Origin: Minisyncoccota bacterium
Lineage (GTDB): Bacteria > Patescibacteriota > Minisyncoccia > UBA6257 > HR35
Length of the DNA: 29,567 nucleotides
Direction of reading: 5' to 3'
NCBI GenBank assembly: GCA_028276075.1
Contig: JAPYXA010000001.1
Span: 1 to 29,567 of the forward strand
Part shown: piece after piece, positions 5,711-18,420 of the stretch
Numbering within the stretch: position 1 is the first letter of the stretch
How the letters are laid out: each line of letters starts with the position of its first letter
Position numbers and translations under genes: made by a program
The notes under the pieces: model-generated
The model's database searches: none
Told to the model about the DNA's origin: nothing
The model's input: only the letters and a program-made list of their open reading frames with translations

Positions 5711-5859
5711 CTTAAAATTATATTACATTTAAGTTAGTGCTTCAATTAATTTCTCTTTTAAACTTTTTAGATAAGATTTTACTAACTGTCACCACCTCTT
5801 AATCTAGGTCAAATACAGAATAACCTCCACCACTAAAACTACAGGGTTTATCATTTAAA

Positions 5860-6002
5860 ATAAGAGACAAGACTATAACTTTTGAATATAGTCCTTGGTT
5901 TAAAATTTTAAAGAAACACTCCACACTGCTTACTTTGTTTGTACCATTGAAAGCATTATAAAACAAGCTTTTTAAGAAGTGAAATTAAAAATTAGGAATA
6001 CT
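5860..6002 (+). repeat. Junction J1: degenerate copy with a 91-bp internal deletion removing the core
   Basis: Matches J3 on the left (TTTGAATATAGTCCTTGG...AAGAAACACTC) and right (ACTGCTTACTTT...ATTAGGAATACT). The segment equivalent to 17539-17629 is missing, joined at a CTC microhomology. TGG is replaced by TAA in the frame. Confidence 0.85.
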
Positions 6003-6037
6003 TGTGATGTTTTAAACAAAGTATAACACTTTATTTT

Positions 6038-6265
6038 TTAATTTCTCAGTAATTTTAAAAATTCTTCTACTGATAAGCCTACTTGTTTAATAATGGCTTT
6101 TAGTGTGCCTTTCTTTAAATCTTTAGTATGATAAGGAATTGTAATACCGATGCTACCCTTAACATAAATTCTATGACTTCCTTTTTGTCTCACAAAAACA
6201 AAACCTAATTTTTCTAAAACTTTAATCACTTCCTTAGACTTTAAGGATGGCAGTTTCGGAGACAT
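6038..6265 (-). CDS. hicA: HicA-family mRNA interferase toxin
   Basis: LEKLGFVFVRQKGSHRIY motif; 'TIPYHTKDLKKGTLKAIIKQ'. Confidence 0.93.
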   Translation of the reverse strand: MSPKLPSLKSKEVIKVLEKLGFVFVRQKGSHRIYVKGSIGITIPYHTKDLKKGTLKAIIKQVGLSVEEFLKLLRN

Positions 6266-6514
6266 TTAAATTCTTACTTTAACAGGAGCGAGGATTATTT
6301 CCTCATCGTCTTTGATTTTCTCTTTATCTTTTTTCATAACTTCAAAATATAGAACTATAGCTTCTTTAATATTCTTTAAAGCTTCATCAAAAGTATCTCC
6401 TTCAGAAATACAACCAGGCAAAGAAGGCACAGTTACTGTATAGCCACCATCCTCATTTTTCTCAAAAACAGCTGTAAATTGATAGATTTTTTTCTTTAAA
6501 GATCTTTTAGCCAT
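6266..6514 (-). CDS. hicB: HicB-family antitoxin (short form, no evident DNA-binding domain)
   Basis: EDGGYTVTVPSLPGCISEGDTFDEALKNIKEAI; abuts the hicA start. Confidence 0.93.
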   Translation of the reverse strand: MAKRSLKKKIYQFTAVFEKNEDGGYTVTVPSLPGCISEGDTFDEALKNIKEAIVLYFEVMKKDKEKIKDDEEIILAPVKVRI

Positions 6515-6549: not shown

Positions 6550-6558
6550 ATTATAACA
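6550..6558 (-). promoter_or_regulatory. Extended -10 promoter (TGTTATAAT) for hicBA
   Basis: Perfect TGnTATAAT on the minus strand, 35 nt upstream of the hicB ATG. Confidence 0.6.
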
Positions 6559-6574
6559 TAACCAAAAATAAACT

Positions 6575-6688
6575 GCTAATTTTGAGAAAATTCATTCTGA
6601 AATGCTCCGCACTGCTTACTTTATTCGAACCATTGAAAACATTATAAAACAAACTCCTTGGGAAGTAAAATTGAAAATTAGAAATACT
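6575..6688 (+). repeat. Junction J2 (attP-like): 32-bp core 6578-6609 plus 79-bp right arm
   Basis: AATTTTGAGAAAATTCATTCTGAAATGCTCCG is identical to 17600-17631 and 18322-18353. Arm 6610-6688 differs from 17632-17710 at 8 of 79 positions. Confidence 0.95.
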
Positions 6689-6741
6689 TGGGAGGTTTTG
6701 AGTGTTATATAATTAAAAAAAACAACTATTTTACAACTATT

Positions 6742-6893
6742 ATGCCTAATCCAAATATAAAACCAAGGTGGAAGAAAGGAGAATCAGGAAACCTGCTAGA
6801 AGACCGAAAGAATCAAGGAATTATAAGACTTTATTCCGTGAAGCATATGTGGCTATTGCAAGGGATTTAAGATTAGGAAAAGACCCAGATGTT
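6742..6893 (+). pseudogene. Frameshifted, truncated DUF5681-like (GxSGNPxGRP) phage-type gene relic
   Basis: Restoring one C at AAC CTG gives MPNPNIKPRWKKGESGNPARRPKESRNYKTLFREAYVAIARDLRLGKDPDVL, cut off at the stop of the 1155-aa gene. Confidence 0.7.
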
Positions 6894-9800
6894 TTATTCT
6901 CTAATAATATCTTCTAATTTCCAAAATAATCTGCCACCTTTTTCTAAAAGTTCGTTAATAAGAGAAATTACTCCGTCTTTTATTTTTTGATTTTTATTTT
7001 TATAAAGAATATTAAATGCTTCATACCATTCTTGATCTATATGAATTAACATTCTGTTTTCGCGTTTATTCTCTAAAATACTATTTAAAAATAAACTTAA
7101 AATTTCTAATGTTTTTTCAGGAGATTCTTTGGCTAATCTAACAATATTTTTCATTAATGCATAATCCCAATCTAAAACGCCTTCTGTTTTTTCTAAAGTT
7201 CTTTTAACCAAATCAGCTAATTCTTCACCTTTGAAAATTCCTTTATCTAAATCAATCCAAAATCCGAATGCTTCAAATGGTTTTTTGTCTTTTGTATATT
7301 TCTCAAGCATCCAATTCCAAAAATCCTTAATTCTTTTCTTAATATTTAAACCATCTTTTTCTATTTTCTCAATAAGATTATCTTCTCTTGTTATAATATA
7401 ACGTCCGATAAAATCTACAAAATGAAAATGTTCTTTTGAGCTTCCTTCTTCCCAGAATTTTTTAAATAATTTATTTTCAAAATCAAATTCTTTAAAATGT
7501 ACAAAAGCAAGCGCTAAATGAGCAGCAATTCCTTCGTCTAAATCTCTAAAATTTTCTTGATTATAATCTTCTTCTTTTAATATAATTCCGTATTCATATA
7601 ATTCCTGAATTTTTAGATCAAAAAATAGTTCTTTGTATAAATTTTGAGACAAATATCCTTGCCAACTTGCGGTATAAAGCCGATTATTTTCTTTTGGAAA
7701 TATTTTAGAAAATAAACTTCTTACCCATTCTTTATCTCTAAAATAAAATGATGGCAAATAATAACCAAACATAAACATTAAAGCCCGAGTATTTTCTTTC
7801 TCTAAAACTTCTTTAAATATTCCTTTTACATCCTCTTTTAGCTTCTCACCATCCTGATAAATAAACAAAACAAAATCTTCAAAAGCTCTACCTCTAACTG
7901 AATTAATTGCTATTGTAAAAGGATCAGAAATCTTTTTTTCTTTCCCTCTTTCAACTGTCATTTTTGCTGTTTTAATATCTTCATCTTCTGGAATTGGATC
8001 CGGATAATTCAATAAGTATTTAATTATTTTCAACAACTCTCCTCTGTATTTGCTAAAATCAATTACAACTATACCATCTTCGCTTTTTAATAATTCTCTA
8101 ATAACATCAGTCATTGCAAAATGAACCGAATTCCAATTAGCTAACAATGTATAACCAAACTTCTGCTCTTGAGGTTCGTTATAGAAACGCTTTTTCTCTC
8201 CTGATTCTTTAATTTTTAATAAAAGGTCAATTAAATTTTTCCCATCAATATCTTTTGCTTTCGCTCTATTATTTTTTATTGCTTCTTGAACACCAGCCAG
8301 AAAAGAATAAGTATAATGAGGATGCAATTTTTCTCTATTAAAAAACTCAGTTGAATATTCTAAATATTTTTCTAATCTTTCTGGGACATTTCTTTTAATA
8401 TGGTCACCGATACCACCAGCATTTATTAAGTCAAAAATATCATATTTATCCTTGTATGTTTGGTAAAGATTTTCAGGAGTCCATTCAGCAGTCAATTTTT
8501 CTAAAATTTCTTTAATTTCCATTTTTGAAAATTCCTCATAAGATATTGGCGATCCACTTCTAACAGTACCGAATTTTACTTCTACTTCCGGCTTTATCTC
8601 AATATCTGGATTTAATTCAAATCCATTGTCTTTTGATTTTAATTTCTCTTTTTCTGTAAGATGATTAAAAATCAACGAAAGTATTTTTGAACCATCTTTT
8701 ATAATCCATTCTTTATCTGGATTTTTCTCTTTTTGTCCTACAAAAAATTCTATAACTTGCTTTACATAATCTCTTTTGTCTTTTTCTTCTAAAACTCCAA
8801 AACAATTCTGAAGTAATTTTTCATATTCAACTGTCAAAATATCATAATACCTATCGCCAACATTAAAAATTCTAAATAACGTTTTTTTAATTTCGTCTTT
8901 GAAGATTGAGCAATCTAATTGTAAAATGGCTAACCTCAATTTCCATGCTGAATATGTATCCGGTAATATTTCCACATTTTCAAAATCTAAAATGTCTTTA
9001 AAAATTTTTCTTAAATCTTCTTTATTATCTTTATATTTTTCTTTAATTAATCTTCTTGAAATTTCTAAAATAGCAGCAATAAGTTCTTTGATATTATCTT
9101 TGCCCCATAAATCTTTATCTTCTCCAACTTTTAAATCAGAAAAATCTTCATAGAAATAAAGATTATCTTTTAACTTAAATATACTTTCTTCACTTTTTTC
9201 AGATGCATTATTTATAACCTCTTTTAAAATTTTTATTGATAAATCTAGAACTTTTTCCAAATATTCATCATCAATATTAACCAAATACCAAAAAACTCTT
9301 GTATAAGATAAATTTTCAAAATAAAATGGACTTTCTGGAAATCTGTTTTGACTTTTTATTTCTTCCCTGCTTTTAACAGATAATATCGCTTCAACAAGAA
9401 TTAATAAATTATCAAAATTTTTTGCCTCAAATAGTTTTTTAAGTATTTCCTCGTATTCAAAACCCCATTGATTAAAAACACCCATTAAAGGAATCCAGTT
9501 TTCATCTTTTATTTTCTGAACAATTCTAACTAATTGTTTAACTGGTAATTTACTACAAATATAAACAAATCTATCTATTACTTCTGGATTAAATGTTTCT
9601 TTTGAAATCGAAACCTGAAGTATAATATCTACAACTTTTTCCGGTACTTTTTCAGCTACTTTTACTAAATAATTTAATTCTGGAGTTTTATAACTATAAC
9701 GAGTTGGATCTTCTGCTTTTTGCTTAATTGCATCTAAAAATCCATTTCCCCAAAGCCAATCAATCCATCGTTCGTCTGCTTTATAAAAGAAATAATAATG

Positions 9801-10361
9801 GGCATCACTATTTATATTGATCAGAGCTTCAATTTCATTTTTCAGTTGTTCCTGTTGAAATTCTATCGGCTCTTTCTCTAAAATTTCATCAATAAATTTA
9901 TGTATATCTGTTTGATATGCTAATGCTTTCTTTATAACCTTTATGAATTCTTGGCGTAAATTTTCAAAATCTTCTATGAGTCTATGATGAGCAACATCTT
10001 GTAATTTATTATAAAGTTTTCCTATTTCTTCATCTTTTATTAGTTTTGACCCCACAGAACCAAATTTTTCAAAAGCTTTTTTCTTTTTATCTTTAACTTG
10101 CTTGATTTGCGGACTAAAAAATGGATAAAGAATTTCTCTTAAGGAATGAGTTGCTTGAGATAACCAATCAGGATTAGATCTATTTTCCTCTCTAGCAGCA
10201 AAAATCGAGCCTTTATAGAATTCAGATGGTTTTTTATTCAAATTATAATATTCATAAAATTTATCCAATTTCCGACACAAATATTCTTCCTCCGGAGATA
10301 AAATAACGGGCGGTAGACGTGTAATTCCATAAAACTCTGGTAAATTTTTATCCTGTTCCAT
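6894..10361 (-). CDS. Large hypothetical protein (possible HEPN-like N-terminal domain + long alpha-helical region); putative defence effector
   Basis: 1155-aa ORF overlapping the MTase stop by 14 nt. N-terminal NPDWLSQATHSLREIL and KLQDVAHH. No Walker motif seen. Confidence 0.8.
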   Translation of the reverse strand: MEQDKNLPEFYGITRLPPVILSPEEEYLCRKLDKFYEYYNLNKKPSEFYKGSIFAAREENRSNPDWLSQATHSLREILYPFFSPQIKQVKDKKKKAFEKFGSVGSKLIKDEEIGKLYNKLQDVAHHRLIEDFENLRQEFIKVIKKALAYQTDIHKFIDEILEKEPIEFQQEQLKNEIEALININSDAHYYFFYKADERWIDWLWGNGFLDAIKQKAEDPTRYSYKTPELNYLVKVAEKVPEKVVDIILQVSISKETFNPEVIDRFVYICSKLPVKQLVRIVQKIKDENWIPLMGVFNQWGFEYEEILKKLFEAKNFDNLLILVEAILSVKSREEIKSQNRFPESPFYFENLSYTRVFWYLVNIDDEYLEKVLDLSIKILKEVINNASEKSEESIFKLKDNLYFYEDFSDLKVGEDKDLWGKDNIKELIAAILEISRRLIKEKYKDNKEDLRKIFKDILDFENVEILPDTYSAWKLRLAILQLDCSIFKDEIKKTLFRIFNVGDRYYDILTVEYEKLLQNCFGVLEEKDKRDYVKQVIEFFVGQKEKNPDKEWIIKDGSKILSLIFNHLTEKEKLKSKDNGFELNPDIEIKPEVEVKFGTVRSGSPISYEEFSKMEIKEILEKLTAEWTPENLYQTYKDKYDIFDLINAGGIGDHIKRNVPERLEKYLEYSTEFFNREKLHPHYTYSFLAGVQEAIKNNRAKAKDIDGKNLIDLLLKIKESGEKKRFYNEPQEQKFGYTLLANWNSVHFAMTDVIRELLKSEDGIVVIDFSKYRGELLKIIKYLLNYPDPIPEDEDIKTAKMTVERGKEKKISDPFTIAINSVRGRAFEDFVLFIYQDGEKLKEDVKGIFKEVLEKENTRALMFMFGYYLPSFYFRDKEWVRSLFSKIFPKENNRLYTASWQGYLSQNLYKELFFDLKIQELYEYGIILKEEDYNQENFRDLDEGIAAHLALAFVHFKEFDFENKLFKKFWEEGSSKEHFHFVDFIGRYIITREDNLIEKIEKDGLNIKKRIKDFWNWMLEKYTKDKKPFEAFGFWIDLDKGIFKGEELADLVKRTLEKTEGVLDWDYALMKNIVRLAKESPEKTLEILSLFLNSILENKRENRMLIHIDQEWYEAFNILYKNKNQKIKDGVISLINELLEKGGRLFWKLEDIIRE

Positions 10362-13300
10362 AATTCTCTATAATTTTAATCTCGTCTTCGGTTAAGTTAT
10401 AAAGTTTATAAACTAATTGGTCTATTTGTTTTTCGTATTCGGTTGTGTCGGCTTTTGAGTTTTGATTTTTAAGAGATAGAATTTTATCAACTAATGATTC
10501 TATTTGTTTTGTCAGTTGTCTATTATTTTCAGAAATGTAAGGAATTGGGAGTTTTTCTAAAAATTCTTTTTTATATCTATAACCCTCGTCTCCTAAACCG
10601 CCACCTGCGTAGAATTTTCTAAAAAAATATGTAACCGGTTTTGAGTTTAATAATCCGCAGATGTATTTAATATTTTCTCCTGTCATTAAAAATGCAGTTG
10701 CTTCAATATAAAATTTATTTTCATCAAAATAAAACTGTGGTTCTTGCACTATTTCTGAATATACTATCTTCTCCTTCTCAAACTCCGGATAATAAGCACA
10801 ATGGCGTAATTCCCACCAGTAATCACCTTGATCATCTCTTTTTTTAGCTTCTTTCTCAAATTTTTTTAAATATTTCATTAAAGATGGAAAGGTTTTTTCA
10901 ATAAATATTTCTGGTTTTTCTTCTCCTCTATTTTCATCTGTCCAACCAGCTGGAATGACTATAACCCACAAACCTGCCCACTCATAATAATATCTTTTAA
11001 TATCTCTCCCTCTTAAAATTGGATTGATGATTGCTTCGGTTCTTTTTCGTTCTTCTTCGTCTTTACAATTGGCTAAAATTTGGTTTCTTTTTTCTGTGGT
11101 TATGATAAAAGCTTCATTTAAACCGGTTTTGATACCGTAGTAAATTTTTACATCCCAATCTTTTAAAGGCTTGCCAATTTTTTCAATTTTTTCTTTTAAT
11201 TTTCTTTCTGCTTCGGTGCCAATAAACCAAGCTTCTGATGTAAGATTAGAAAGCAAAATGCTTTTTTCTTTAAATACTTCATCAATATTGTTTTTATCTT
11301 GTTTTTCAAGCTTTAAAGCTTTTAATTTATTTTGATTTTGCGATTTTTGAATTATTAAAATACAAGTATCCACTGTCGCGCTTTCAAAAACTCCAGGACC
11401 CAAATCAATAAGCTTAATTGGATTATATTTAATAAAAAATTCTCTTAATTTTTTACCATAGCCAGCCCTCATCCATTTATTAGAAGAAATATAAGTTAAA
11501 ATTCCATTTAATTTTAAAAGTTGTATCCCCTTTTCATAAAAAAGACAATAAATATCTCCAGTTCTATCAAATGTTTCATATCCTTCTTCTTTGTATAAAT
11601 CAGCATATTTTTTCTCTTTATCAAAAGCTTTTTGAAGTTGAATATAAGGTGGGTTAGCAATCACAATATCAAAACCATCACTTAATCCAAACATCCATTC
11701 TGGCTCAAACCAAGGATTAGAATAATTTGGATCAAAAGGTTTAAAAGCAAGAATTTTTTGAGCTGTTTGTTTTAAAGCATCTCCAGAAATAACTTTTTTA
11801 ATTTCTTCTATTTTCTTATTAACTTCTTTTAATTCTTTTAATTTACTCTGAATTTTTCCTTGCTTTAAATCAATACTTAGTCGCATAGTTTTGCCGAATA
11901 ATCTTTTTTGCTCAATAACCTGAAATTGCTCTGGCTCTAATTTAATTTTTTCAATCTCTTCTTGAATTTTTTTTGCTTGCGAAATCAATTGTCCTAATTC
12001 TCTTTTTTTCTCTATTTTAATAGTAGATTTCAAGCTTTCAGATAATTTCTTTTCTAATTTTTCTATATTTTCTCTTATCTTTTTCTTATCTCCTCTTAAT
12101 TTTGCCCTAAAATAACGATGATATTGTTCTTTAATATCATTAAAAAGTTTTTGGATTTTTTCATCTTTAAATAATGTAAGTTGGATATCTTTTTTAATAC
12201 CTAAACCAATTAGAGAATTAGCAGTGATAAATTTCAAATCAAGATTTGGCAAAGGAATAATTCCAAAATTTTCTTTATTTTTATCAACTTTTTGATCAAT
12301 GATTAAAGAAATAAAAAATCTTAATTTGCTTAATTGTGTAGCAATTTGCTGAATATCAACTCCGAAAATACAATTTTCTATTAAATAAAGTTTTCTGGCA
12401 TAATCAGGGTAAAAAAGATTTTCATTAAATGTTTCTTCTAATTCTTTAAAATGTTCTTCTATTTCTTTTTCATCTTTTTCTGATAATTTTTTAAGTTCTT
12501 CTTTTAATTTTCTTATTTGAATTTTTTTCCAATATTCATTTTTGGGGTCTATTTTCCCTAAAACATAAACCAACTTATTTAAAATACCCATTGGAAAAGC
12601 ACCAGAGCCACAAGCAGGATCGATTATTTTAATTTCGCTTATTATTTCTACGATTTTTTCTTTTTGTTTTTCTTCAGGTTCAATTTCTTCATCTGAATAA
12701 GATAAAAGTAAATCAAGGGTTTCTTCTGGTATTTCGGGAAGCTTAGTTTTAAAATATTCAAGAAGGCTTTGATGAACCATATATTCAACAATTTCTCTTG
12801 GAGTATAATAACTACCTGTTGCTTTTCTTGCTGTGGTTGCGGTTTCCGGATTATAGACTGCCAAAAGATTTTCAAAAATTTTTCCTAAAAGTTCTGGGTC
12901 CAAAGCAACTTCTTGGTCAATTGGAGTTGCTTCATCTATCGTAAAATTATAGCTTTTTAATATATTAATAAGTCCTCTTGCTTTTTGATTTGATTTAATT
13001 TGGTATTTGCTTAAATCAGTTTTAATTTCTTCGCTAAAGAATAAATAATCAGGAATTTTTGCTTGTCTCTTTTCTTCTCGTGAAAAACCATCAACATAAA
13101 TTACTTTTCCGTTTTCATCTTCTTTGTCTAAACAATCAAAAAGACCACCATTGATAAAAGGAATCTCAGAGAATATTTCTTGTACTTCTTCAGGAGAAAT
13201 TAAAAATTTGTCTTCGTATCTATATAATTGTTTAATCCCATAAGTATTCCTATTTTCCGGAAACCCCTTGTTAAAAGCCCAACCTCTATCTTTAATTGGT

Positions 13301-14073
13301 TGATTTAATGTAGCAAAGAATAAATTTTGCAAAATTGCGTTGTAATAATTACAAGAATCTTGGGAAACATTAAAATCTTTAATTACTCCTTTAATTTCTT
13401 TTTGGTTAAAAATTTGATCTGGAATTAATCCTTTTTGCTTAATAAACCAAATAAAAATTAATCTACTTAATAATCTTATAAGATGTAGAGGCTTGGTTTC
13501 TTTTTTATTATCTGGAAAATGTATTTTATCTAAAGCGGTAAAGAACCATGTTTGGATTTCTTTATAAAATTCTTTTGTAATTGGCTCAACAGAAAATGCT
13601 TCTTTTATTTTTTCTAAAGATGAAAAATCTCCATCTCCTACCTGACGTAAGAATGTATTATTTGTCTGATCTTTAGACACAAAATAGGTGAATCTCTTGA
13701 AATGACTAAACTTTCTTTTAGTACCAAAGTATTCTGTATAAATTAAAGAAAATCTGAATTTATTATCATTGTCATAAAAAATAAATATTCCAGCATCTGC
13801 ATTTTCATTTTTTAAAATTTTTTTCCCAATTTCGTATTGTTTTTTCTTGCCGGATCTTTCAGTTAATTCTTTTAAAACTTTAAATGTACAAAAAATAATG
13901 TTATTATCTTGAAATTGAATTTCTCCGATCTTTTTTGATAAACTAAAATCTTCATTTTCAATTCCTAAATTAATTTCTAAAGGTCTAAAATTATGATTTT
14001 TAATTCGAAAAAAATTAATAAATTTTTCTGGAGAAAAATCTTCAATTATTTGTCTTAAAATTTCTCTGCTCAT
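10348..14073 (-). CDS. Eco57I/TaqI-like N6-adenine DNA methyltransferase with C-terminal target-recognition domain
   Basis: FINGGLF, PELLGKIFENLL, GSYYTPREIV, motif I DPACGSGAF, motif IV IANPPY, TaqI_C-like C-terminus. Confidence 0.93.
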   Translation of the reverse strand: MSREILRQIIEDFSPEKFINFFRIKNHNFRPLEINLGIENEDFSLSKKIGEIQFQDNNIIFCTFKVLKELTERSGKKKQYEIGKKILKNENADAGIFIFYDNDNKFRFSLIYTEYFGTKRKFSHFKRFTYFVSKDQTNNTFLRQVGDGDFSSLEKIKEAFSVEPITKEFYKEIQTWFFTALDKIHFPDNKKETKPLHLIRLLSRLIFIWFIKQKGLIPDQIFNQKEIKGVIKDFNVSQDSCNYYNAILQNLFFATLNQPIKDRGWAFNKGFPENRNTYGIKQLYRYEDKFLISPEEVQEIFSEIPFINGGLFDCLDKEDENGKVIYVDGFSREEKRQAKIPDYLFFSEEIKTDLSKYQIKSNQKARGLINILKSYNFTIDEATPIDQEVALDPELLGKIFENLLAVYNPETATTARKATGSYYTPREIVEYMVHQSLLEYFKTKLPEIPEETLDLLLSYSDEEIEPEEKQKEKIVEIISEIKIIDPACGSGAFPMGILNKLVYVLGKIDPKNEYWKKIQIRKLKEELKKLSEKDEKEIEEHFKELEETFNENLFYPDYARKLYLIENCIFGVDIQQIATQLSKLRFFISLIIDQKVDKNKENFGIIPLPNLDLKFITANSLIGLGIKKDIQLTLFKDEKIQKLFNDIKEQYHRYFRAKLRGDKKKIRENIEKLEKKLSESLKSTIKIEKKRELGQLISQAKKIQEEIEKIKLEPEQFQVIEQKRLFGKTMRLSIDLKQGKIQSKLKELKEVNKKIEEIKKVISGDALKQTAQKILAFKPFDPNYSNPWFEPEWMFGLSDGFDIVIANPPYIQLQKAFDKEKKYADLYKEEGYETFDRTGDIYCLFYEKGIQLLKLNGILTYISSNKWMRAGYGKKLREFFIKYNPIKLIDLGPGVFESATVDTCILIIQKSQNQNKLKALKLEKQDKNNIDEVFKEKSILLSNLTSEAWFIGTEAERKLKEKIEKIGKPLKDWDVKIYYGIKTGLNEAFIITTEKRNQILANCKDEEERKRTEAIINPILRGRDIKRYYYEWAGLWVIVIPAGWTDENRGEEKPEIFIEKTFPSLMKYLKKFEKEAKKRDDQGDYWWELRHCAYYPEFEKEKIVYSEIVQEPQFYFDENKFYIEATAFLMTGENIKYICGLLNSKPVTYFFRKFYAGGGLGDEGYRYKKEFLEKLPIPYISENNRQLTKQIESLVDKILSLKNQNSKADTTEYEKQIDQLVYKLYNLTEDEIKIIENYGTG

Positions 14074-17000
14074 AAATTCCTATTTTCTATCGCAATAATA
14101 ATTTCTTTACTAATTTCTTTTAATTTTTCTTTTTCTTTTAATAAGTAATTTTCTCCCCCTAACTCATCTTTTAATTTTTCTAATTCTTTTATTGTATTTT
14201 CCATTTCATCGTCCGAAGCTTTTAATTTTATAATTCTGCGCAAAGTATAATCAGATAGAGTACCATAATCTGTAATATCTTCTCGCAAAGTGCGTAAGAA
14301 TTCTTTTAGTGGAGATAATTTTTCATTGTTTAAGTTAAGTAAAGTTTTAATATTGTTTAATGCTTTTTGCTCTAAACTTGCTTCAGGAATAGGCAACCTT
14401 TCTTCTCTTAATTCTTTAACAATTTCGTATTTTTCCCAAAAATTGTCACTTAAATCTATCAATTTTTCATTTTTGGGGCAACGAATTCTATCTATTATTT
14501 CTTCAAGTATAACTGGCTGTGGTTTATTTTGGTCGTTGTAATCAATTTTTTGGATATACAGTCTTCTTTTTTTAATAAACACAAGAAGTTCATCTTTATC
14601 GGATTTTTTTGCAACTTTTACTCTTGGTGGACAATTTTTTATATTCTCAACAATTTCGGGGTATTCTTTTTTAATTCTTTCAAATTCATTCAAAATTGTA
14701 GTATAAAAACTCTCACTTTCTATTTTATCTGGGTTTTGTTGTATTCTTTGATACAGTTCGGAAGGAATTGGTTCTTCATCAATATCAAATATTTTAGCAT
14801 CTTCTCCAAGCACATTATGAATTAAAAACATTTTTTGCGCCGCTATTTCTCTTGATTTTACAAGTTCGGATCCTTTTTCAGTTGGAAAAAAGTTTGCTAT
14901 ATAAACTTTATCAAAAACTTTTTTACCAATCCTATTGATTCTACCCACTCTTTGAATAACTCTTACCGGATTCCAAGGTATATCATAATTTATTACAAGA
15001 CCAGCTCGATTTAAATTAAATCCTTCAGAGATTCTATCAGTAGATAAAATAATATCGTATTTGTTTTCTTTCTTTTCTTCTGGATAAGAAGCGTCAAAAT
15101 TTTTATTTATTTCTTCTATTTTAGTTTTTGTTAGATCACCAGCAATAACTAAAACACTATCATTAAAGTATTTTTGTAATGGGTTTTTAAGATATTTAAC
15201 TGTATCAAGATATTCTGAAAATATAACAATTTTTCTGCGAGGATCTATTTTCCTCCATTCTCCTAATTTGTTTATTAAACACTCCAATTTAGGATCGTTA
15301 TTTACTAGTCCTAAAGCATCTAACCTTTTTAAAATTTCTTCAAATAAATTAAGATCAGATTTTATATCCTCAAGAAAAAGATCTTTTTCTTTCAGTTTTT
15401 CTATTTCGTATATATCCGAGTTCTTTGGATAAATTCCTTCGTTCAATTTTTGAGCGTATTCTTTAAGTTTTTCTTCTATTTGTTCAGGTTCTAATTCACA
15501 AATTTTTTCCAGGAAGTCTCTGTCTAAAATAAATTTATTGGTTTTATTTATAAATTGGAGGCAATGATCTGTTATGTTTCGGAAGTTTTCTATACTTTGC
15601 TTAAATGCTCCAAAAGAACTTTCAAATCTTTTAACAAGCAATCTTCTCATAAAGTCATACAAATTAAATTGTTGTTGAAATCTTCTATTATCTTCTTCTG
15701 ATAAATCAATTTCTGTATCTTCATATTTAACTCCTGCTTTATATTCAAAAGGCCTGTAAATTGCACCTTTAAATTTTCCGCCCTCTTCTGGATAATTAAA
15801 ATAACTTATTACTTCGTCATAAAATTTAGACTGCTCTTTGGATAATTCAAAAAACCATTCCTGAGGATCTGCAACTTCAGTTAAATTTTTAACCTCATCT
15901 TTATAAAATGGATTCTTTTGTAAATCAAGTCTATTTCTTCTAATTGTTACAGGTTCAATAACGTCTCTTATTTGTTTTGATAAATATTTTGCTCTTTGAG
16001 TAACTTTTCTTAGATCTATTTCGTCCTCTCCGAATAAAGATTTGTAATATGCTTTTGCCTTTGAAGATTTGTTTTCATCGCCTAAGTTGTGATATTTTTT
16101 AATATAACCAAGTTTATCAAAGGTAGTTTTAAATATCCTAAACTTATCTAATAAATTATTTTCTAATGTAATTGTCGATTTTTTAGGAGATATAAATAGT
16201 TTTAATAATGACAAAATATCACCGGGGCGATTATTAAATGGAGTTGCAGTAAGCAAAATTACTATTTTATCACGACAAATATTTTTTAATTGTTCGTATG
16301 ATTTGGTATCTTCATTTCTAAATCTATGCGCTTCATCAACTATTATTACTTCAATATCTCTTAATCCTTTTAAAGATTTTATAAAATCTTTATTGCCTAA
16401 TTTTCCTATTGATTCTGCTCGCCAATCGTATAATCCAAAAGCTTCAAGATACCATCTCCACCCTGATTTTTCCTTTTTTTCGTCTCCTATAAGGCCTGGT
16501 GGACACAAAACAATGCCTCTTTTTCTTAATTGCCTAGCTACTAAACAGGAAATTATTGTTTTACCTAAACCAACAACATCAGCTATTATAACTCCATTAT
16601 TGTTTTCTATTATACTAAGCGCTTGTTTAACAGCATGTATTTGATAAAGATAAGGAGCAAAGCCATTTTTTTCCATAACTGATTTAATGCTTTCGTCACC
16701 AACATCTTTAAGAGAGAAAGTGTCAAGATAATTTTTTAAAACAAGAGAATATGCTTCAAATGGAGTAATTTTCTTTATTAAAGTTTTATTTTCAATAGTA
16801 CTTATTAGTCGCTCTTTTATTATATTATTTTCTGTTATCTGGATTGCCTCTTCCCAAAGATTATCAAAATATTCTTCCGCCTCTTTTGATCCATAATCAC
16901 TTATTTCTACATTAAATTCTTGTTGTTGTTCTAAACCAGCCGATGTTAAATTACTACTGCCTGTTATAAAAATAGTATTTTTTACTTCTCCGGGTTTTAA

Positions 17001-17417
17001 TTTAAAAATATACAATTTAGCATGATTTGGTTTATAAGTTTTTCGAATTATTAATCTATTTTCTTTTATTAAATCTATGAAAAATTTAACTTGTTCGTAA
17101 AATTCTCTTGTATCAAAATCGTCTGAATTGATAGAAATTGCTAAAGATTTGAAAAAAAGATCTAATTTTTCTTGACCTGATATACTTGAATCTCTCTCAG
17201 TAATTTCTATAAGTCCATAAGTTATCTTATCAACATTTAAACCAACTAAGATTTTTAATTTAGCAGAAGGATTGTTTTTTAACCCTTCGTACAATTCTTT
17301 TATTCCGGAAAAATAAAAGAAACCCACTAAAAATTTTAATTCATTGCTTTTGGATATTAACTCACTTATCCTATCTTTCAAATTCCCAACTCCGCTATTG
17401 GTTATAAAATTAGCCAT
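14070..17417 (-). CDS. PLD-nuclease + SNF2/SF2 helicase fusion
   Basis: PLD-like NHAKLY...GSSNLT; helicase motifs IADVVGLGKT, DEAHRFRN, LTATP, SEGFNL, NYDIPWNPVRVIQRVGRINR. 4-nt overlap with the MTase start. Confidence 0.93.
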   Translation of the reverse strand: MANFITNSGVGNLKDRISELISKSNELKFLVGFFYFSGIKELYEGLKNNPSAKLKILVGLNVDKITYGLIEITERDSSISGQEKLDLFFKSLAISINSDDFDTREFYEQVKFFIDLIKENRLIIRKTYKPNHAKLYIFKLKPGEVKNTIFITGSSNLTSAGLEQQQEFNVEISDYGSKEAEEYFDNLWEEAIQITENNIIKERLISTIENKTLIKKITPFEAYSLVLKNYLDTFSLKDVGDESIKSVMEKNGFAPYLYQIHAVKQALSIIENNNGVIIADVVGLGKTIISCLVARQLRKRGIVLCPPGLIGDEKKEKSGWRWYLEAFGLYDWRAESIGKLGNKDFIKSLKGLRDIEVIIVDEAHRFRNEDTKSYEQLKNICRDKIVILLTATPFNNRPGDILSLLKLFISPKKSTITLENNLLDKFRIFKTTFDKLGYIKKYHNLGDENKSSKAKAYYKSLFGEDEIDLRKVTQRAKYLSKQIRDVIEPVTIRRNRLDLQKNPFYKDEVKNLTEVADPQEWFFELSKEQSKFYDEVISYFNYPEEGGKFKGAIYRPFEYKAGVKYEDTEIDLSEEDNRRFQQQFNLYDFMRRLLVKRFESSFGAFKQSIENFRNITDHCLQFINKTNKFILDRDFLEKICELEPEQIEEKLKEYAQKLNEGIYPKNSDIYEIEKLKEKDLFLEDIKSDLNLFEEILKRLDALGLVNNDPKLECLINKLGEWRKIDPRRKIVIFSEYLDTVKYLKNPLQKYFNDSVLVIAGDLTKTKIEEINKNFDASYPEEKKENKYDIILSTDRISEGFNLNRAGLVINYDIPWNPVRVIQRVGRINRIGKKVFDKVYIANFFPTEKGSELVKSREIAAQKMFLIHNVLGEDAKIFDIDEEPIPSELYQRIQQNPDKIESESFYTTILNEFERIKKEYPEIVENIKNCPPRVKVAKKSDKDELLVFIKKRRLYIQKIDYNDQNKPQPVILEEIIDRIRCPKNEKLIDLSDNFWEKYEIVKELREERLPIPEASLEQKALNNIKTLLNLNNEKLSPLKEFLRTLREDITDYGTLSDYTLRRIIKLKASDDEMENTIKELEKLKDELGGENYLLKEKEKLKEISKEIIIAIENRNL

Positions 17418-17476
17418 AATTATATTTTAATTTTACCATTCTATATTTAGAGTTCAAATTTTAAAGAAAGATTTTA

Positions 17477-17743
17477 ATAAGGAATATGGTCATAAGTTTT
17501 GAATATAGTCCTTGGTTCGCAATTTTAAAGAAACACTCTAGACTTATTAAAGAAATTTGCGAACTCGAAAAAGATAAGATTTTACAAGGAGAAAAAGCTA
17601 ATTTTGAGAAAATTCATTCTGAAATGCTCCGCACTGCTTACTTTATTCAAACCATCGAAAATATCATCAAACAAACTCCTTGGGAAGTAAAATTAAAGAT
17701 TAGGAATACTTTTCAAATAATTAATGAAGTCTTTGGGCATTAA
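17477..17743 (+). pseudogene. Junction J3: most complete copy; 85-aa ORF reading through the core (probable C-terminal remnant of an element gene, possibly a recombinase)
   Basis: Core 17600-17631 lies within ...KANFEKIHSEMLRTAYFIQT.... Homology to J1 extends upstream of the ATG (IRNMVISFEY vs IRDKTITFEY), so the ATG is probably not an original start. Confidence 0.6.
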
Positions 17744-18142
17744 AATTTTTAATTTATGTTTAGAAGCAAAGTTTATCACTTTTTGATTTAGAAACCCTTT
17801 ATCTAAAGTTAAAAGAAAATTAACTTTTTCCTTTATTGCTGAAGCTAAAATAGGAGCATCTTTTTCTTCCACTAAATTTTTTAATTGTTTTAAATCTTTT
17901 TTATTCGGGTTATTCACAATAGAGATTTCTCCTAATGTTAAAATTTCAAAAAATCTCATTAAAAGATTAGGAAATTTTCTTTCAACAACATCTAAAAGCT
18001 CTTTTAAAATAAATTCTGAAATAAACAATTTATAACCTTTGTTTTTAGCTGAAACTAAACAATAATATGAAGCTCCTTTATTAGAAATCAAAGAAGAAAT
18101 GATAACACTTGAATCAACAAAAACTTTTTTATTGTTTTCCAT
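17693..18142 (-). CDS. PIN-domain (VapC-like) toxin
   Basis: VFVDSSVIIS, SEFILKEL, KDAPIL and LLTLDK supply the PIN acidic residues. Start MENNKK at 18142 preferred, since the longer track start lies inside the antitoxin ORF. Confidence 0.9.
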   Translation of the reverse strand: MENNKKVFVDSSVIISSLISNKGASYYCLVSAKNKGYKLFISEFILKELLDVVERKFPNLLMRFFEILTLGEISIVNNPNKKDLKQLKNLVEEKDAPILASAIKEKVNFLLTLDKGFLNQKVINFASKHKLKILMPKDFINYLKSIPNL

Positions 18143-18302
18143 AATATTTCTTATAAATTTTTGCTCTAGATTTTTTAAGATCTTTTCTAACTTTCTCCCA
18201 TATTTTTTTGTCAACACTAAAATCAATTTTTGGGCTAATAATTGTCTTCAAAACCTTCAATTCTTTTTCTAATTTATTTATTCTTTCTAAAACTTTTACC
18301 AT
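18129..18302 (-). CDS. Putative antitoxin (57 aa) for the PIN toxin
   Basis: Not in the track. MVKVLERINKLEKELKVLKTIISPKIDFSVDKKIWEKVRKDLKKSRAKIYKKYYGKQ*; overlaps the PIN start by 14 nt. Confidence 0.7.
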   Translation of the reverse strand: MVKVLERINKLEKELKVLKTIISPKIDFSVDKKIWEKVRKDLKKSRAKIYKKYYGKQ

Positions 18303-18311
18303 CTTATTTAA

Positions 18312-18320
18312 ATTATAACA
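18312..18320 (-). promoter_or_regulatory. Extended -10 promoter (TGTTATAAT) for the PIN TA pair, near-leaderless
   Basis: Perfect TGnTATAAT with 9 nt between it and the ATG at 18302; immediately adjacent to the junction core. Confidence 0.65.
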
Positions 18321-18321
18321 A

Positions 18322-18353
18322 AATTTTGAGAAAATTCATTCTGAAATGCTCCG
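18322..18353 (+). repeat. Junction J4: 32-bp core overlapping the tRNA-Asn 3' end
   Basis: Identical to the J2 and J3 cores; its last 5 nt (18349-18353) are the tRNA 3' terminus. Confidence 0.95.
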
Positions 18354-18420
18354 GGGGCAGGATTCGAACCTGCGACATCGCGGTTAACAGCCGCGCGTTC
18401 TACCGCTGAACTACCCCGGA
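18349..18420 (-). tRNA. tRNA-Asn (GTT), CCA not encoded
   Basis: TCCGGGG/CCCCGGA acceptor stem, GTTC/GAAC D-stem, CGCGG-CT-GTT-AA-CCGCG anticodon arm, GCAGG-TTCGAAT-CCTGC T-arm, G discriminator. Confidence 0.98.

Follow-up and report, generated by a model that had tools for sequence, protein, structure and literature searches.

We propose, with a probability of roughly 0.7, that the repeat described here constitutes the 3'-terminal part of a gene for a large serine recombinase (LSR), that this gene spans its own crossover at tRNA-Asn, that integration swaps the tail of the encoded enzyme, and that the window retains relics of this arrangement. The window is the entire 29.6-kb contig that was analyzed, part of a 564-kb assembly of 98 contigs (26% GC, 66% complete). 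An exact 32-nt core occurs in it three times (6578-6609, 17600-17631, and 18322-18353), and a search of the 564-kb assembly found the repeat confined to this contig. The junctions, J1 to J4, their right arms (P-right), and the target gene are as follows.

5859-6027, plus strand: J1, a decayed junction; integrase-end relic fused to a HicAB-type P-right
6578-6609, plus strand: J2 core; last 32 nt of the integrase frame before the crossover, exact triplicate
6610-6712, plus strand: J2 P-right; alternative integrase tail (27 conserved codons, 7 cassette-specific codons, stop)
17420-17632, plus strand: serine integrase relic; residues 439-512 of P0007, 73% identity (tblastn)
17486-17743, plus strand: J3 85-aa open reading frame (ORF); integrase-end relic, core, and PIN-type P-right in one frame
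17600-17631, plus strand: J3 core; exact triplicate
18322-18353, plus strand: J4 core; its final 6 nt are the 3' end of tRNA-Asn
18348-18420, minus strand: tRNA-Asn(GUU), the integration target (ARAGORN); its antisense encodes the 11-aa integrated-state integrase tail

The initial annotation had reported 8 differences over 79 nt, seven of them synonymous, between the right arms of J2 (6610-6688) and J3 (17632-17710), and direct comparison confirms this count. The differences fall at positions 6627, 6634, 6640, 6643, 6646, 6673, 6676, and 6682; all are synonymous third-codon-position changes in the plus frame except that at 6627, a second-position change that exchanges R and Q. The chance that at least seven of eight changes would fall at third positions is 0.0026. 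The same annotation had described the frame RTAYFI(R/Q) as continuous with NFEKIHSEML across the core, and so it is: the plus frame is uninterrupted across the 32 nt, running open in J2 from 6572 to the stop at 6710-6712 and forming part of the 85-aa ORF in J3, while each of the other five frames is interrupted in the arm of at least one of these two copies.

Full-length homologs of the 85-aa J3 peptide were sought as a check on what this frame encodes, and they proved to be LSRs. Two short homologs (P0002 and P0003) extend the frame N-terminally, and the full-length proteins P0007 to P0010 (511 to 526 aa, within an overall homolog range of 511 to 546 aa) carry PF00239 and PF07508. Three of these (P0007, P0008, and P0010) end in NFEKIHSEML followed by RGQDSNLRH, which is the J4 core followed by the antisense of tRNA-Asn; thus, the integrated-state gene crosses the junction and stops within the tRNA gene. 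The frame passes the core in all full-length homologs, namely, these three proteins, L043, and the members of a second family, LSR2, from L017, L035, G107, and G142. LSR2 is 27% identical to P0007, and its L017 representative carries PF00239, PF07508, and PF13408. An intact LSR adjoins tRNA-Asn at five loci (L005, L006, L008, L026, and L043, the last a Candidatus Saccharibacteria MAG). These comparisons establish the identity of the gene and the continuity of its frame, and they support the earlier suggestion that an element gene crosses attP, with the junction encoding its C terminus; that gene is the element's own LSR.

That suggestion requires refinement for the window itself: the coding origin stands, and the frame found here is a relic, corresponding to residues 439-512 of an integrase of ~520 aa and devoid of the catalytic domain, which abuts the start of the PLD-SNF2 gene. 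The 85-aa ORF (residues ~467-512 plus the tail) has no LSR domain according to Pfam, which returned only a sub-threshold DEDDh_C match, and PADLOC returned nothing for it; we therefore treat it as a relic and not as a member of the LSR family. No LSR was detected anywhere in the 66%-complete assembly. An assignment to HEPN/DUF86, in which PWEVKLKIRNT was read as a truncated RNxxxH motif, was dropped given that the homologs show an LSR C terminus.

The architecture of the elements can be read from relatives, where 41 metagenome loci carry parts of the junction. Many of the supporting loci are short metagenome contigs that may be misjoined at the repeat, and the closed genomes and the window are the firm cases. 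In the complete LSR2 elements (L017, L035, G107, and G142), one end is formed by the integrase, which overlaps tRNA-Asn, and the opposite end carries an in-frame P-right. The L017 element comprises 5,569 bp between 30-nt repeats, and those in the closed genomes G107 and G142 measure ~11.3 kb and ~12.5 kb. The ends of the G107 element share only CTCCG, which places the crossover there, and the codon phase at CTC CG is the same at both element ends. Throughout both LSR families, P-right is in phase with the integrase; since the matching phase is found at the far end, circularization would extend the integrase by RTAYFIRTIENIIKQTPWEVKLKIRNT plus 7 to 10 residues. In L003 and G142, an LSR1-type relic and a core are followed by the P-right of an LSR2 element, so that the LSR2 element lies between the older relic and the tRNA, which indicates that new arrivals insert on the tRNA side. 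The junction was found in 7 of the 24 genomes of the window's family and in none of 376 from elsewhere in the same order; one close locus from a GTDB scan ends 6.6 kb upstream of the integrase, short of the left end of the LSR1 element.

No full-length integrase contiguous with P-right was found among the loci, proteins, and viral contigs searched. A word-index search of longer proteins with residues 46-85 returned no protein of this kind. In a HMMER scan of 1.84 billion representatives, the hits were confined to short ORFs and one unrelated 159-aa fusion, and IMG/VR yielded no tail and only LSRs that are 26 to 42% identical. Where the integrase end, core, and P-right do occur together (window J3, L002, L003, L007, and G142), the integrase is truncated; the L002 relic ORF is broken by a stop, and that of L003 consists of the last ~46 integrase residues behind unrelated sequence. 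Translation of the tail within an active enzyme, that is, in the attP form, is thus something that we infer. P-right is also kept intact in cassettes without any integrase.

Several other arms occur beside the core in these loci. A second right-arm family (AYILDLR.LD.Y.I.Q) is in frame with the integrase end in L014 (5713-5760), L016, and L022 and in P0006 and P0018; it has CGAA at positions 19-22 from the crossover, the same distance as in P-right, and it may be a divergent alternative tail. In L041 (3586-3620), a hybrid arm has a tRNA-like fragment (GAGGCAGGATTCGAACC) that runs straight into P-right downstream of its own ATTCGAACC, as though recombination between the tRNA and P-right had taken place at the 9-mer that they share. 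Elsewhere, the core adjoins arms that resemble neither P-right nor the tRNA, one reading SEMPYT (L004, 864-930; L027, 3001-3070) and one beginning CGCAAATTGG (L040, 2267-2330). Neither the PYT arm of L004 and L027 nor the arm of L040 and L042 contains a P'-type motif, and these may be the ends of other elements, secondary sites, or assembly joins. Separately, a repeat of ~51 nt with an internal palindrome is present in two to three copies upstream of the gene for an AAA_25 (RepA/KaiC-like) ATPase (L017, 1771-1955; L035, 7014-7128); these repeats look iteron-like, which suggests that the LSR2 elements replicate when excised.

Whether the synonymous bias persists in a larger set of copies had been set beforehand as a refutation test, and the bias holds. 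Across 19 distinct P-right copies drawn from the 41 loci, Fitch changes are distributed over the three codon positions as 24/19/56 (chi-square p = 5e-6), and 23 of 46 single-nucleotide variant codons are synonymous, versus 21 to 27% expected (p = 3e-5). The pN/pS ratio is 0.18 to 0.23 overall (pairwise, 0 to 0.36). In comparisons with the most distant copies, G107 and G142, ~12 of ~18 synonymous sites differ, which is near saturation, and the peptide is retained. The stop position is likewise conserved: the tail measures 36 aa from M47 and ends 36 codons past an M or L located two codons before the junction, with 39 in the PIN-type cassette. Stops or frameshifts have disrupted roughly one copy in four, as would be the case for relics. 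The differences between J2 and J3 represent the divergence of two cassette lineages that evolved under coding constraint. J3 itself is a tandem junction, in which the integrase relic end of an older element is joined to the tail of the next cassette, and is not a live attP, so that the selection signal is inherited from mobile ancestors and may no longer act on the window copies.

What protein does this coding sequence belong to? P-right could instead be a stand-alone micro-gene of 36 to 39 aa, started from the ATG or TTG of the core and acting in trans like an RDF, with its phase relative to the integrase incidental or secondary. Gene callers do annotate such an ORF (P0012, P0014, and P0019), and in 9 of 15 copies, an ATG or TTG precedes the tail by two codons. 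The tail is also conserved in length and persists in integrase-less cassettes, and the complex model considered below passed with the tail in trans. Against this, the start codon is missing from several open copies (e.g., CAA in L027 and AGA in L033), the core ATG in the window is not preceded by a Shine-Dalgarno-like motif, and the frame is in phase with the integrase every time in two LSR families that are merely 27% identical. On balance, we regard a separate micro-gene as unlikely and favor a tail that belongs to the integrase.

Conservation of the arm purely as DNA, as a P' half-site or another protein-binding site with the open frame as a by-product, is a different matter, given that the first ~25 nt must serve as an integrase-binding half-site and that the arm carries a motif placed as attachment sites would have it. 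The motif is found twice beside the core.

6623-6631, plus strand: ATTCGAACC in P-right, 13 nt beyond the core
18362-18370, plus strand: ATTCGAACC in the tRNA (T-arm antisense), 8 nt beyond the core

ATTCGAACC is therefore 5 nt farther from the crossover in P-right than in the tRNA, and with the center placed between CTC and CG, it occupies half-site positions 11-19 in the tRNA and 16-24 in P-right. The zinc-ribbon motif of LI integrase shows this same shift, at bp 16-24 of attP and bp 11-19 of attB (PMC3783163). In G107, the reconstructed naive attB is a pseudo-palindrome around the same center, with ATTNGAA at positions 11-17 on both sides. The left half-sites have no clear motif, and a hand alignment of the core with the tRNA half-site yielded matches (GAA at 15-17) too weak to be relied on. 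Judged from sequence, the anatomy of the site is suggestive of an LSR attP/attB pair. A half-site accounts for only part of the arm, however: conservation extends over 81 nt, ~3 times an LSR half-site (roughly 25 bp), and the three-base periodicity in one frame, the pN/pS of 0.18, and the conserved stop position are not expected of a binding site. P-right thus shows the conservation of a coding sequence, a pattern that a purely DNA-level role does not explain, and we consider the DNA-only explanation quite improbable.

The window also contains an array of such units. The order toward the tRNA is J1, HicAB, J2, the 11-kb defense operon, the integrase relic with J3, the PIN pair, and J4 with the tRNA, each unit of the array consisting of P-right, cargo, and at least 32 nt of the integrase 3' end. 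With no intact integrase in the window, J1 to J4 are the relic ends of successive insertions, and they bound three integrase-less cassettes.

6038-6514, minus strand: HicA/HicB toxin-antitoxin cassette, J1 to J2 (Pfam PF07927 and PF15919)
6894-17417, minus strand: 11-kb cassette, a three-gene operon (Dsr1-like protein, type IIG methylase/restriction enzyme, PLD-SNF2 helicase)
17693-18302, minus strand: PIN toxin and 57-aa partner, the J3 to J4 cassette (Pfam PF13470)

The HicAB cassette adjoins tRNA-Asn in L018 and L031, and its right end is joined to at least five different partners, with breakpoints within the last nucleotides of the core. Of the three proteins of the 11-kb operon, one (1155 aa) resembles Dsr1 weakly (8.7e-14), and the others are a type IIG enzyme (9e-157) and a DrmD-like PLD-SNF2 helicase (1e-34); the operon moves as one cassette (L011, L012, and L033) and lies directly at tRNA-Asn in L011 and L012, while L004 corresponds to the window minus this unit at 93 to 96% identity. 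The PIN pair is also found in L002, L004, and L041.

Three further observations concern the array. J1 carries an integrase-end relic at 5860-5922 and has suffered an internal deletion, an in-frame stop, and a frameshift; the deletion (5915-5925) joined AAACACTC of the integrase relic to a point just past the core, at a CTCC microhomology, and L014, whose flank is 96.5% identical, shows the undeleted state followed by a different right arm. On the minus strand, TGTTATAAT, an extended -10 box, occurs at 6550-6558 and 18312-18320, 19 nt from the J2 core and 1 nt from the J4 core, and points into hicB and the PIN partner gene, respectively; the small cassettes thus each seem to carry a putative promoter of their own beside the core. 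Just inside the 11-kb unit, at 6743-6890, lies a frameshifted relic of a DUF5681/gp3-like DNA-packaging gene, and intact homologs directly follow P-right in L001, L017 (PF16677), and L027 (PF18932), from which we conclude that the 11-kb unit descends from a small phage- or satellite-like element.

Could the copies simply be paralogs of a small host gene, spread by homologous and not by site-specific recombination? There are three to four copies on the one contig, and the 85-aa ORF has its own ATG; yet this ORF is the C-terminal 15% of an LSR, the junctions of relatives abut tRNA-Asn and intact LSRs, and the breakpoints with varied right-hand partners all fall in the last few nucleotides of the core, so that we find this origin highly improbable. 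Scarcely credible is an antisense origin of the synonymous pattern, through cargo gene ends or terminators that overlap the arm, because although the last codons and stop of the PIN gene (17693-17695) do come from the J3 arm antisense, the arm is conserved while the cargo differs (HicA ends 11 nt past the J1 tail stop, and a DUF5681 relic follows the J2 arm), and every antisense frame is interrupted in the arm of J2, of J3, or of both.

In total, the observations outlined above are what one would expect if the repeat is the end of an LSR gene that spans its own crossover, and they lead us to the following proposed mechanism. The LSR gene is carried by small integrative elements of a single Saccharibacteria-like family, whose insertion site is the 3' end of tRNA-Asn. 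It occupies the tRNA-proximal edge of the element and reads over a crossover that falls inside CTCCG, among the final 6 nt of the tRNA. Once the element is integrated, the ORF ends with ~11 codons taken from the tRNA antisense, while in the circular form (attP), or where a tandem element lies downstream, the frame would continue into P-right. P-right would then add a conserved 34-residue tail, with the consensus RTAYFIRTIENIIKQTPWEVKLKIRNT followed by 7 to 10 variable residues, and its place in the integration-competent integrase would account for the purifying selection on it. We predict that the tail folds back onto the coiled-coil base and the zinc-ribbon domain, where directionality is controlled in the LSRs studied so far. 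If so, integration may switch the state of the enzyme by swapping its tail and thereby alter directionality, a regulatory role that we infer from the modeled position of the tail.

This prediction comes from modeling residues 140-530 of the L017 LSR2 in complex with the 34-aa tail, which gave a median ipSAE of 0.68, compared with 0.01 for the best of three controls. Among reference cases, 58 solved complexes out of 80 attained this ipSAE mark, as did 2 of the 110 mismatched pairs, a calibration that is rough here given the use of custom alignments. The score calls for some caution, given that fragments of a single protein often pass such a test and that the model may owe part of the value to LSR-RDF structures already deposited in the PDB. 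Three model runs agree in at least 74% of contacts, with a partner pLDDT of at least 77, and the predicted contacts of the tail are with LSR2 residues 357-364, 435-467, and 484-486. In the AlphaFold model of LSR2, which is mediocre (mean pLDDT of 65, nine-row alignment), a zinc ribbon is followed by a long helical hairpin at 351-429, and the contacts map to the start of the outgoing coiled-coil helix (H351-398) and to the helices and hairpin after the returning helix (436-483; H436-468). Residues 488-541 are predicted to be disordered, which would suit a linker. The tail is thus predicted to bind the coiled-coil base of the integrase. LSRs that are more distantly related stop immediately past the post-coiled-coil hairpin and lack a tail (L063), which indicates that the tail is not needed for the basic fold and is an accessory module. 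We found no sequence similarity between the tail and known RDFs. In the SPbeta integrase, the RDF and the extreme C terminus act at the junction of the coiled coil and the zinc ribbon, and the extreme C terminus is required for excision and has been termed a directionality "toggle switch" (bioRxiv 10.1101/2025.01.03.631226).

We speculate further, as a tentative possibility, that the exchange works as a switch in cis. In such a scheme, the 34-residue tail of the excised form would dock on the coiled-coil base, and its short tRNA-encoded replacement would change which pairs of sites are recombined without the need for an RDF. Integrase-less cassettes (the TA pairs and the 11-kb defense operon) would stay mobilizable in trans because their left half-site lies inside the retained 32-nt core, and the result would be an integron-like, serine-recombinase defense array at the tRNA-Asn of reduced CPR genomes. 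The array is not an integron as such: no tyrosine recombinase was found, and its junctions are LSR coding sequence and not attC hairpins.

How does this arrangement compare with known systems? The closest parallel is provided by the SSV-type ("suicidal") tyrosine integrases of archaeal viruses and plasmids, whose attP lies inside the integrase ORF and whose target is a tRNA (PMC7253208; PMC8371274). The elements of our full-length homologs likewise target tRNA-Asn and have attP inside the integrase ORF; in both systems, integration separates the parts of the gene, and hybrid ORFs arise from different elements. The homologs are nonetheless serine recombinases and lack the tyrosine recombinase fold. 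Whereas integration of an SSV-type element leaves an archaeal tyrosine recombinase in two inactive halves, the bacterial LSR would have ~34 residues swapped for ~11 encoded by the tRNA, with its catalytic and DNA-binding body intact when integrated.

A second parallel is the integration-dependent immunity of mycobacteriophage BPs, where attP lies near the 3' end of the repressor gene and integration changes the C terminus (PMC4557955). There, as proposed here, attP is in a coding region near its 3' end, and integration alters the C terminus of the protein and thereby its behavior; in BPs, however, the gene encodes a repressor and the integrase is a tyrosine enzyme, while here the gene encodes the serine integrase itself. 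For the SPbeta and phiC31 serine integrases, directionality is set by the coiled-coil base on the zinc-ribbon domain together with the extreme C terminus (bioRxiv 10.1101/2025.01.03.631226; PMC5737554). This is the region in which our tail is predicted to bind. In those enzymes, a separate RDF does the switching and the C terminus is fixed, whereas here the C terminus itself would be exchanged.

Two further systems resemble the array and its conservation. SCCmec-type islands, moved by the serine recombinases CcrAB and CcrC, target the 3' end of rlmH and restore the frame of the host gene. They form tandem arrays at one site, with direct repeats that contain the end of a coding frame and with recombinase-less pseudo-elements beside recombinase-bearing ones, as in the present case; unlike those islands, the elements described here target tRNA-Asn, and the frame in their repeats belongs to the recombinase itself. 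Phage 21 and e14 insert into icd and supply a substitute 3' end, and the duplicated segments differ mainly synonymously, both having evolved as coding sequence. That arrangement preserves a host gene, whereas here it is the recombinase of the element that is concerned.

An attP inside an integrase ORF with a tRNA target is thus known already for archaeal tyrosine enzymes, as is a C-terminal swap for mycobacteriophage repressors. Our literature search turned up no serine integrase that has been reported to exchange its tail on integration and no account of such elements in Saccharibacteria. The finding would extend the principle that an integrase gene can span attP from archaeal tyrosine to bacterial serine enzymes. 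The control of directionality is a central open question for serine integrases and limits their use in genome engineering; if our proposal is true, a recombination-driven exchange of the C terminus at the directionality site would constitute an RDF-independent switch. It would also explain how tiny Saccharibacteria-like genomes (about 0.6 Mb) gather and reshuffle defense and toxin-antitoxin modules at one tRNA gene.
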